Assembly (NCBI RefSeq): GCF_036507355.1
Contig: NZ_AP027877.1
Length of the DNA stretch: 64,000 nt
Direction: 5' to 3' (one strand)
Source: Escherichia coli
Lineage (GTDB): Bacteria; Pseudomonadota; Gammaproteobacteria; Enterobacterales; Enterobacteriaceae
The position numbers and the translations under genes are program-made. Shown here one piece after another: positions 19,650 through 20,344 of this stretch (position 1 is the first letter of the stretch; every line of letters begins with the position of its first letter). The notes beneath the pieces are model-generated. The model did not search any database. It was given only the letters and a program-made list of their open reading frames with translations, and was not told the DNA's origin.

Positions 19650-19712
19650 ACTTGACTTCATACTGTGATGTCATACTATTGATGTCATAAAGTGAAGTCA
19701 TAAGGACATGCC
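19650..19712 (+). promoter_or_regulatory. promoter with four tandem TGA(N)GTCATA-type repeats upstream of the hicA-like gene
   Basis: TTGACT, a 16-nt spacer, then TACTAT; overlapping repeats GACTTCATA, GATGTCATA, GATGTCATA, GAAGTCATA; AAGGA RBS before the ATG. Confidence 0.55.
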
Positions 19713-19988
19713 ATGAGAACCAAGGTACAGGCTTTACGGAAGAAACAAAAAAATACATTGGATCAAATATTTAAAACTCCTGTTCCTCAAGGGATCAAGT
19801 GGTCTGATATAGAGTCACTGGTTAAAGCATTAGGCGGAGAAATTAAGGAAGGAAGAGGTTCGCGTTGTAAGTTCATACTAAATATGAGCGTTGCGTGTTT
19901 CCATCGGCCTCATCCGTCGCCAGATACCGATAAAGGCGCTGTAGAAAGCGTGCGTGACTGGTTACTAAGTATAGGGGTAAAACCATGA
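19713..19988 (+). CDS. HicA-like toxin (putative mRNA interferase)
   Basis: 91-aa ORF; C-terminal part resembles the HicA fold signature (GS..KF...HRPHP...KGAV..V...L...G); 4-bp ATGA overlap with the downstream gene. Confidence 0.6.
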   Translation: MRTKVQALRKKQKNTLDQIFKTPVPQGIKWSDIESLVKALGGEIKEGRGSRCKFILNMSVACFHRPHPSPDTDKGAVESVRDWLLSIGVKP

Positions 19989-20344
19989 TCAAACTGAAGA
20001 CGCCAAACTCTATGGAGATTGCCGGGCAACCTGCTGTTATCACTTACGTGCCAGAACTGAATGCATTTCGTGGCAAATTCCTGGGCTTGTCAGGTTATTG
20101 TGATTTTGTCTCTGACAGCATTCAGGGGCTGCAAAAAGAAGGGGAACTTTCCCTGCGAGAGTATCTTGAGGATTGTAAAGCTGCGGGTATTGAGCCGTAT
20201 GCGCGTACAGAAAAGATTAAGACCTTTACGTTACGCTATCCAGAATCGCTGAGTGAACGCCTTAATAATGCGGCTGCGCAGCAACAAGTCTCTGTTAATA
20301 CCTATATTATTGAAACACTGAATGAGCGTTTGAATCATTTATAA
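19985..20344 (+). CDS. HicB-like antitoxin with C-terminal ribbon-helix-helix-like segment
   Basis: 119-aa ORF overlapping the upstream toxin-like gene; C-terminus RYPESLSERLNNAAAQQQVSVNTYIIETLNERL resembles an RHH DNA-binding motif. Confidence 0.55.
   Translation: MIKLKTPNSMEIAGQPAVITYVPELNAFRGKFLGLSGYCDFVSDSIQGLQKEGELSLREYLEDCKAAGIEPYARTEKIKTFTLRYPESLSERLNNAAAQQQVSVNTYIIETLNERLNHL

Follow-up and report, generated by a model that had tools for sequence, protein, structure and literature searches.

The two small genes between yhhJ and nikR on the E. coli chromosome are a HicA/HicB toxin-antitoxin pair, already annotated by name in RefSeq, with a four-box operator. By sequence profile, predicted fold, partner and operon layout, this hicAB is a class 4 module of Gerdes. 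It is filed as a variant clade and not as a standard HicA member because the catalytic His is absent. The HicA-like protein is probably an RNA-cleaving toxin with a putatively re-wired active site. Conservation of the operator boxes and their covariation with HicB form strong indirect evidence for HicB autoregulation, putatively with one RHH dimer per box. Taken jointly, the explanation that combines regulation by HicB, neutralisation and a toxin is considered likely. As far as our literature searches reach, the His-less signature, the candidate replacement residue and the operator/RHH covariation are unrecorded.

Genomic organization of the hicAB locus

The analysed window is a stretch of 64,000 nucleotides of E. 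coli chromosome, in which the gene order is yhiI, rbbA, yhhJ, the hicA-like ORF and the hicB-like ORF. After hicAB come, on the opposite strand, genes for a class II aldolase, an HPr-like protein, an FGGY kinase and PTS components; nikR marks the end of the region. The hicA-like gene (19713..19988, plus strand) begins with ATG and codes for 91 aa, as seen from the ORF list, Pfam, AF2 and alignments. Its product is labelled 'type II toxin-antitoxin system HicA family toxin' in RefSeq (WP_001259385.1). The hicB-like gene (19985..20344, plus strand), identified from the ORF list, Pfam, AF2 and Foldseek, also begins with ATG, and its 119-aa product is labelled 'HicB family antitoxin' (WP_000593555.1). 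Both ORFs are present with the ATGA overlap described in the initial annotation. A Shine-Dalgarno-like AAGGA was read in the sequence at 19702..19706 (plus strand), 6 nt 5' of the hicA ATG. The interval between hicB and the convergent aldolase gene holds a terminator (20349..20386), made of a hairpin at 20349-20379 followed by a U-run at 20382-20386. RNA folding gave −20.1 kcal/mol for the hairpin (z −4.8), and none of 200 shuffled sequences was equally stable. The locus is thus organized as an operon of two co-directional small genes with a 4-nt overlap, one promoter-like site on the 5' side and one terminator on the 3' side. No RNA family of Rfam matched 19400-20600, even at E 1.

The segment 19641-20344 of the window is 100% identical to O157:H7 strains. 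The full hicAB locus was found in 2,071 of the 5,426 complete E. coli genomes (38%, including O157:H7), in every case on the chromosome, while about 62% of complete genomes lack the yhhJ-nikR pair. In strain 94-3024 hicAB adjoins nikR, whereas in the window a sugar-PTS/aldolase island intervenes, so that cassette and island represent two distinct insertions.

Domain composition and predicted fold of the HicA-like protein

The profile search proposed as a check in the initial annotation assigned both proteins to the expected families. The 91-aa protein matched HicA_toxin (PF07927) with E 3.7e-9 and 37 bits, over residues 30-80 and model positions 1-52 of 58, and the 119-aa protein matched HicB (PF05534). 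As the HicA match begins at residue 30, an N-terminal extension of about 29 residues is left, in agreement with the roughly 30 residues noted earlier. The AF2 model, built with 19 homologues, has a pLDDT of 95.7 and the topology a0-a1-b-b-b-a2. Residues 1-29 make a basic helical extension with helices at 2-6 and 10-19. The dsRBD-like core (residues 30-86) is composed of a helix at 30-39, strands at 43-46, 51-56 and 59-64, and a helix at 74-86. Across the clade L16, F20, P23 and W30 of the N-terminal part are conserved, so the extension is a real part of the protein and not a mis-called start.

Fold matches were obtained to HicA3 and HicB3 of Y. pestis (PDB 4p78, 4p7d). Alignment by hhalign against four solved HicAs gave a probability of 93.8% and E 1.7e-7, ungapped over 52 columns. 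A single-sequence search of PDB with the toxin found no match even at E 10, because the similarity to solved HicAs is too low at the sequence level; a profile search reached the HicA chain 9svk (E 0.05). Scans with NCBIfam and PADLOC gave no match for either protein, and among the PHROG families 8887 'toxin' matched HicA (E 7e-27) and 9151 'HicB-like antitoxin' matched HicB. Between genera dN is 0.09-0.27, with saturated synonymous sites which preclude a dN/dS ratio; the low dN against this saturation indicates purifying selection on both genes.

Conservation of the toxin motif and candidate active site

HicA toxins are described in reviews as His-dependent RNases. Their defining feature, the catalytic His of the G-S-H motif with which strand beta2 begins, is absent from the present protein, in which the aligned residue is R51. 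The protein carries the motif EGRGSRCKFIL, containing G49-S50-R51, and further on F63-H64-R65-P66-H67-P68. In hhalign the counterpart of G49-S50-R51 in B. pseudomallei HicA is G22-S23-H24, and the residues opposite H64 and H67 are T37 and H40, respectively. The altered motif GSRCKF reported in the initial annotation was confirmed, with the correction that the key substitution is His to Arg at R51 and does not lie at C52. The gonococcal and B. pseudomallei toxins depend on His24, and its equivalent is essential in every HicA tested (PMC12297915; PMC11594946); the solved B. pseudomallei chains have Ala at this position, being the inactive H24A mutant. In the reviews consulted, every characterised HicA keeps the His, namely as H23 in E. 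coli, H24 in B. pseudomallei, S. meliloti and the gonococcus, H36 in S. pneumoniae and H31 in gp91 of phage Adephagia. Since the defining catalytic His of HicA is missing, RNase activity cannot be assumed for this clade.

Residue conservation was analysed in 268 clade sequences. G49 is present in 264 and S50 in 261 of them, R51 in 260 of 267, H64 in 254 of 257 and H67 in 253 of 257. P66, K74 and R81 are also conserved, while position 52 varies among V, C and I. The few members whose motif reads GSA or GSM keep both H64 and H67; the sole His-bearing member (P0203, with GSH) still keeps H64. GSR is thus the signature of a large clade and no oddity of E. coli, which bears out the suggestion of a distinct HicA-clade member. 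DSSP assigns strands to 51-56 and 59-64 with a two-residue turn between them. From this turn and the strand register of the predicted model, R51 and H64 would be cross-strand partners on the same sheet face, which is deduced to be the face where the canonical His sits. The model permits the tentative prediction that catalysis is carried out by H64 with the assistance of R51 and H67, an assignment to which we give a little less than an even chance. The putative toxicity of the HicA-like protein is regarded as reasonably likely.

In the literature searched, no member of the GSR clade was found to have been experimentally tested, and searches for the two RefSeq protein accessions returned nothing. 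The 2024 survey of HicA contexts by Gerdes does not discuss active-site residues (PMC10865869).

Distribution of the histidine-less clade

Homologues share 52-86% identity with the E. coli HicA-like protein. Their hosts include Enterobacterales, Pasteurellaceae, Neisseriaceae, rhizobia, Burkholderiales and Halomonas, as well as Cyanobacteria/Melainabacteria, Acidobacteriota and Desulfovibrionales. An exhaustive profile search collected 1,012 clusters at 50% identity (E <= 1e-10), a word-indexed search 4,176 clusters at 90% identity, and the exact motif PHPSP[DE][TS]DK occurs in 309 species-representative genomes. With the Haemophilus paracuniculus member as query, the best 120 matches contained no H. 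influenzae entry that could stand for the founding H. influenzae HicA. Because Neisseria and Sinorhizobium are among the relatives, the HicAB systems of the gonococcus and of S. meliloti were checked; they were rejected as clade members, both having canonical HicAs with His24 (gonococcal: PMC12297915).

Relatives are also found on 231 plasmid records, from Piscirickettsia, Rhizobium, Sinorhizobium, Deinococcus and others, and on 51 phage records, including Ralstonia phages and Burkholderia phage ST79. Such mobility raises the question whether the main role of the pair is abortive-infection phage defence or stabilisation of mobile elements, by the same molecular mechanism, and not growth control induced by stress. 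Such a role is in line with the close relatives carried by many plasmids and by phages of Burkholderia and Ralstonia, with the PHROG families for both proteins and with the argument of Gerdes (2024) that HicA modules are generally linked to defence (PMC10865869). It is weakened by the lack of a PADLOC match and by the position of the E. coli locus between yhhJ and the sugar-PTS island or nikR, with no recognisable defence island, and as the main role it is held to be rather unlikely.

Variation within E. coli and loss of the toxin gene

A nonsense mutation at hicA codon 2 (ATG TAA) was found in 771 genomes, about 37% of the 2,071 carriers, as counted with an allele-specific 81-nt query at >=99% identity. 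Strain 94-3024 is the inspected representative of this allele. Its hicB is intact, with the same protein accession as in O157, and RefSeq annotates a 76-aa HicA product from a non-standard start. In strain CM2 hicA is flagged as a frameshifted pseudogene, again with intact hicB. The protein collection contains truncated HicA variants, one of which (P0094) breaks exactly at the GSR motif and occurs on 588 contigs. Repeated loss of hicA with hicB kept, as seen at the loci inspected, fits a costly toxin. Relaxed selection, rather than toxicity, could also be the cause of such frequent loss. In H. influenzae the hicAB and toxTA operons show loss of the toxin with the antitoxin kept (bioRxiv 10.1101/330480). 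The toxTA preprint concerns a toxin of RelE/ParE type and is relevant for the toxin-deletion pattern alone (bioRxiv 10.1101/330480).

These alleles bear on the question whether the HicA-like protein is catalytically dead, acting as an RNA-binding protein or HicB co-regulator in a regulatory module, or surviving as a domesticated remnant. The substitution of Arg for the catalytic His in the clade as a whole, the nonsense hicA of some 37% of E. coli carriers and the lack of a matching curated NCBIfam model all speak for a dead protein. The retention of hicB at the inspected nonsense locus means, on this reading, that HicB may have a role of its own. However, H64, R65, H67, K74 and R81 are conserved across phyla, which fits an active site better than decay, and the cassette moves on plasmids and phages like working TA modules. 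Toxin loss with a kept antitoxin is, moreover, the pattern of H. influenzae hicAB and toxTA mentioned above. The lack of the His is itself compatible with catalysis, as RelE and MazF cleave RNA with Arg/Lys/Tyr or Arg/Thr and no His. On balance a dead HicA is considered quite unlikely, and a toxin with a different set of active-site residues is the preferred reading.

Domain structure of the HicB-like antitoxin

In the 119-aa protein the HicB family match (PF05534) spans residues 60-112 with E 3.5e-15, accompanied by weak matches to Arc, CopG and FitA; PF15919 found no match. The AF2 model (pLDDT 88.8) is composed of four strands and a long helix (residues 8-67), a linker, and a strand-helix-helix segment. 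An N-terminal HicB domain of partial RNase H-like fold is accordingly seen at residues 8-67, where pLDDT is above 90. The best Foldseek matches were HicB of B. pseudomallei (6g26_B, probability 1.00) and HicB3 of Y. pestis (4p7d_B, 0.93), followed by the HicB-like TTHA0281 (2dsy), and the tail matched Arc of the co-crystal 1bdv_B (probability 0.98). A profile of 22 HicBs matched the Arc repressor with E 2.7e-4, which substantiates the RHH-like C-terminal segment ascribed to this ORF; the RHH domain is placed at residues 74-119. In the alignment K79-T80-F81-T82-L83-R84-Y85 of HicB corresponds to P8-Q9-F10-N11-L12-R13-W14 of Arc. Bases are contacted by Q9, N11 and R13 in the crystal structure of Arc with its operator, and T80, T82 and R84 of HicB are the putative equivalents of these base-reading residues. 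Palindromic operators in the own promoter, another mark of such an antitoxin, are represented by the four near-palindromic boxes, a candidate operator array whose boxes are enriched and covarying in relatives.

The C-terminus of HicB aligns with residues 6-47 of Arc and so resembles RHH repressors of Arc/Mnt type, and FitA of FitAB, with the difference that the RHH is here fused to a toxin-neutralising domain.

Operator boxes and promoter of the E. coli locus

Four boxes, found by pattern search, lie within 50 bp upstream of hicA. Box 1 (TGACTTCATA, 19653..19662), which was also recovered by repeat search, has the 8-bp core TGACTTCA and contains the -35-like hexamer TTGACT (19652..19657, plus strand), a hexamer also seen in the upstream sequences of relatives. 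Box 2 (TGATGTCATA, 19666..19675) is situated in the promoter spacer and is identical to box 3 (TGATGTCATA, 19680..19689), which lies over the transcription start predicted near 19686. Box 4 (TGAAGTCATA, 19693..19702), also supported by relatives, is in the 5' leader. The -10-like hexamer TACTAT (19674..19679, plus strand) is a consensus match only. Every core is a near-palindrome TGA-nn-TCA, and the starts (19653, 19666, 19680, 19693) are spaced by 13/14/13 bp. The pattern TGANNTCATA has 5 matches in the 64-kb window against about 1.4 expected, and 4 of the 5 fall within these 50 bp. The initial annotation had described four TGA(N)GTCATA repeats; four boxes are indeed present, of which box 1 (TGACTTCATA) does not fit that formula literally. 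Its further statement that two repeats are mutually inverted is accurate, as the core of box 1, TGACTTCA, is the exact reverse complement of that of box 4, TGAAGTCA. The repeat search also returned a direct repeat of 24 nt, spaced by 27 bp, together with an imperfect inverted repeat of 21 nt.

TTGACT-16-TACTAT (19652-19679) is the sole plus-strand promoter match upstream of hicA, so that the promoter named earlier, with its 16-nt spacer, was recovered by the scan. The scan gave 3 sites against 2.0 expected in shuffles, which is not above chance, and the promoter call therefore stands on context and conservation and not on the scan. A candidate CRP site at TGTGA (19664-19668) was dropped, as its TCACA partner is absent by eye.

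Neighbouring boxes at 13-14 bp are about 1.25 helical turns apart. This is no whole number of turns, so RHH dimers on neighbouring boxes would not be aligned along a single face of straight B-DNA, and the spacing does not allow a prediction of how dimers or tetramers are arranged. On the Arc operator multiple dimers occupy adjacent short sub-sites at 11-bp spacing, compared with 13-14 bp here.

The array is polymorphic. Some carriers, among them strain 94-3024 and Escherichia sp. E1V33, have a 3-box allele which lacks exactly one 14-bp unit (19666-19679) holding box 2.

Operators in relatives and covariation with HicB

Upstream regions were compared at 80 loci taken from one-genome-per-species contigs. 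At nearly all of them a hicB-like ORF follows hicA, mostly with the 4-nt overlap, and the other species have paired 8-bp palindromic boxes, 13 bp apart, just 5' of hicA; 13 bp is also the commonest box spacing across loci. In Enterobacterales and Pasteurellaceae, 1-4 boxes of TGACTTCA, TGAAGTCA or TGACGTCA type are present within 100 nt upstream of hicA, typically as 13-bp-spaced pairs, and TGACTTCA is the commonest box among enterobacterial relatives. One box provides the -35 (tTGACTtca), and the start site is covered by another pair, 27 bp downstream; the same 27 bp separate boxes 1 and 3 of E. coli. When upstream sequences of Citrobacter, Kosakonia and Xenorhabdus loci were read by eye, a TTGACTTCA box was seen 16-17 nt 5' of a -10-like hexamer. 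Over 28 loci of Pasteurellaceae and of enterobacteria other than Escherichia, boxes of TGACTTCA type number 69 in the 2.7 kb formed by the 100-nt stretches upstream of hicA, against 12 in the remaining 142 kb, which makes them about 300-fold denser upstream of the gene. An 84-aa subclade from other phyla has a different box sequence in the same layout, with two 8-bp palindromes 13 bp apart which end 10-30 nt before the ATG. Examples are TAGTACTA-n5-TAGTACTA, TGGTACCA, TGATATCA and TGATACTA, and GTAC-type boxes are about 260-fold denser upstream of hicA in this subclade.

The box sequence was found to vary with the RHH strand of HicB. Strands of T-T-R type (K-T-F-T-L-R-Y) pair with TGAnnTCA boxes in 27 of 28 loci, and those of (K/R)-N-R type, that is G-(K/R)-F-N-(V/L)-R, with GTAC boxes. 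K-F-Q-V-R strands pair with mixed GATAC/GGTAC boxes, (K/N)-(A/P)-R strands, with A or P in the middle, with TGATATCA in 5/5 loci, and strands with M or V with GACAC/GATAC boxes. These counts come from phylogenetically related loci and are not independent events. Even so, each of several strand classes is associated with a box of its own, a pattern that neither neutral repeats nor a foreign regulator would give rise to. The enrichment of about 300-fold in other genera and this covariation lend support to the earlier idea that the repeats are a putative antitoxin operator.

That the four boxes are a by-product of tandem duplication, or sites of another host regulator not bound by HicB, could be argued from the 3-box/4-box polymorphism, as a difference of one 14-bp unit implies that the array changes by slippage or duplication. 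The boxes, however, keep their position across dozens of genera in which the flanking genes are unrelated, and their sequence changes together with the beta-strand of HicB, a pattern that would arise neither from neutral duplication nor from a host regulator. Such an origin is accordingly taken as highly improbable. Regulation by HicB itself, whose RHH would read the boxes and at full occupancy shut the promoter, is by comparison of these sequences thought very probable.

Comparison with known HicAB systems

HicA3/HicB3 of Y. pestis resembles this pair in having hicA before hicB and an antitoxin with a HicB fold and a C-terminal RHH. HicB3 binds more than one operator at or around its promoter, including one over the -10 (PMC11594946), in parallel with the multi-box layout here; its operators are two in number and flank the promoter (PMC11594946; PMC10865869). 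Unlike the present 91-aa protein, HicA3 has the catalytic His in GSH and no N-terminal extension. The Y. pestis genes are 174 bp apart while the genes here overlap, and the Y. pestis operators are two 15-bp inverted repeats in place of 8-bp boxes at 13-bp spacing (PMC11594946). The B. pseudomallei toxin (HicAB, PDB 6g26, 4c26) needs G22 and H24, the latter equivalent to R51 here, and shares about 18-23% identity with the present HicA. B. pseudomallei HicB binds a palindrome over the -10 (PMC11594946; PMC10865869), and a single palindromic site is described for this system (PMC11594946). The hicAB of E. coli K-12 (PDB 6hpb) is an unrelated paralogue situated at another locus than the yhhJ-nikR pair; its HicB has a helix-turn-helix and not an RHH, and its HicA keeps His23 (PMC11594946).

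Proposed mechanism and significance

In the proposed mechanism, a sigma-70 promoter would drive transcription, with the four near-palindromic boxes of 8-10 bp extending over its -35, spacer, -10 flank and start site. HicB would dimerise through its RHH, and the beta-ribbon K79-Y85 most likely reads one box per dimer, until full occupancy of the four boxes shuts the promoter. The ATGA overlap would couple translation of hicA and hicB, and the hairpin terminator would close the operon. The N-terminal domain of HicB is expected to bind and neutralise HicA. HicA, with its dsRBD-like fold and conserved basic N-terminal helix, would be the probable RNA-cleaving toxin. H64 of strand beta3, predicted to face R51, may take the acid-base role with the assistance of R51 and the family-wide H67, and the basic helix (LRKKQKNTL in E. 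coli, KRKH in most members) may add RNA contacts.

A more far-reaching proposal is that the GSR/FHRPHP proteins form a mechanistically distinct branch of HicA, in which the catalytic His has moved from beta2 to beta3 (H64), leaving its former position to Arg, and which has gained a conserved basic N-terminal helix. This is possible and at present doubtful. If true, the branch could have a different catalytic geometry and possibly an RNA target other than the mRNA/tmRNA of canonical HicA, and its HicB/operator pairs would reveal an RHH recognition code in which T corresponds to TGAnnTCA, N to GTAC, and A, P, M or V to GATAT or GATAC.

The clade is apparently an unstudied branch found in major pathogens. 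As there are two unrelated hicAB loci, transcript studies of 'hicAB' in EHEC should specify the one that they measured. The operator/RHH covariation offers ready natural specificity swaps for studies of RHH-DNA recognition. If the clade is indeed toxic, the dsRBD scaffold of these toxins is able to accommodate a second arrangement of the active site.

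Operator and hicA alleles in E. coli

One 14-bp unit of the hicA operator, positioned at 19666-19679 of the window, was found to be polymorphic in E. coli and distinguishes four-box from three-box alleles. The polymorphism is seen on comparing the window with the locus of strain 94-3024 (L082, 322-402) and locus L004 (2420-2590). In strain 94-3024, the three-box allele is linked to a nonsense codon at position 2 of hicA (ATG TAA) while hicB is identical. Among 5,426 complete genomes, an allele-specific query detected this three-box/ATG TAA allele at 99% identity or more in 771. 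An intact hicA stands behind the three-box promoter in Escherichia sp. E1V33. Outside the four-box array, the only match to the box motif TGANNTCATA in the 64-kb window was TGATTTCATA at 63029-63038 on the minus strand, a lone occurrence and no more than chance would predict.

Several further HicA variants of E. coli were disrupted or had the N-terminus replaced, namely those of strain CM2 (L083, 373-647) and the proteins P0094, P0071, P0068, P0041, P0039 and P0067. A frameshift in an A-run near codon 10 was found among the E. coli variants. P0094, on record for 588 contigs, is truncated exactly at the GSR motif.

Genomic context of the hicAB locus

In strain 94-3024 (L082), nikR directly follows hicB. 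In the window, the two genes are separated by a seven-gene island (20394 to about 26000; 6795-12404 in locus L001) composed of genes for an aldolase, HPr, an FGGY kinase, PTS IIC, IIB and IIA components and a GntR regulator. K-12 has the RhsB region at this position. The stretch between yhhJ and nikR thus has the look of a hot spot for insertions.

Two unrelated hicAB loci are present in O157:H7. Induction of O157:H7 'hicA/hicB' has been described in bovine faeces and rumen fluid (PMC5854682, PMC8524897). Both reports cite the K-12 system and, in their available text, do not state which O157 hicAB locus was measured.

Database names and sequence variation of the HicA clade

Several database records of clade members (P0052, P0055, P0058, P0077, P0268 and P0273) carry the name 'hexulose-6-phosphate synthase'. 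Since these proteins are HicA homologues of 84-102 aa, the name has almost certainly spread from a mistaken annotation. In Serratia silvae (L024, 2501-3133), a single 211-aa ORF joins HicA and HicB, with an altered HicA C-terminus (...ESFRSKLMKV...). The joined ORF is due to a frameshift or an error in sequencing, or else is a natural fusion resembling class 11 of Gerdes.

In four rare members of the clade (P0203, P0230, P0235 and P0213), R51, the residue in place of the catalytic His, is replaced by His, Ala or Met while H64 is kept. The GSH variant, with His at position 51, also retains H64 and has Tyr in place of H67. These R51-variant members may be evolutionary intermediates bearing on the identity of the catalytic residue.
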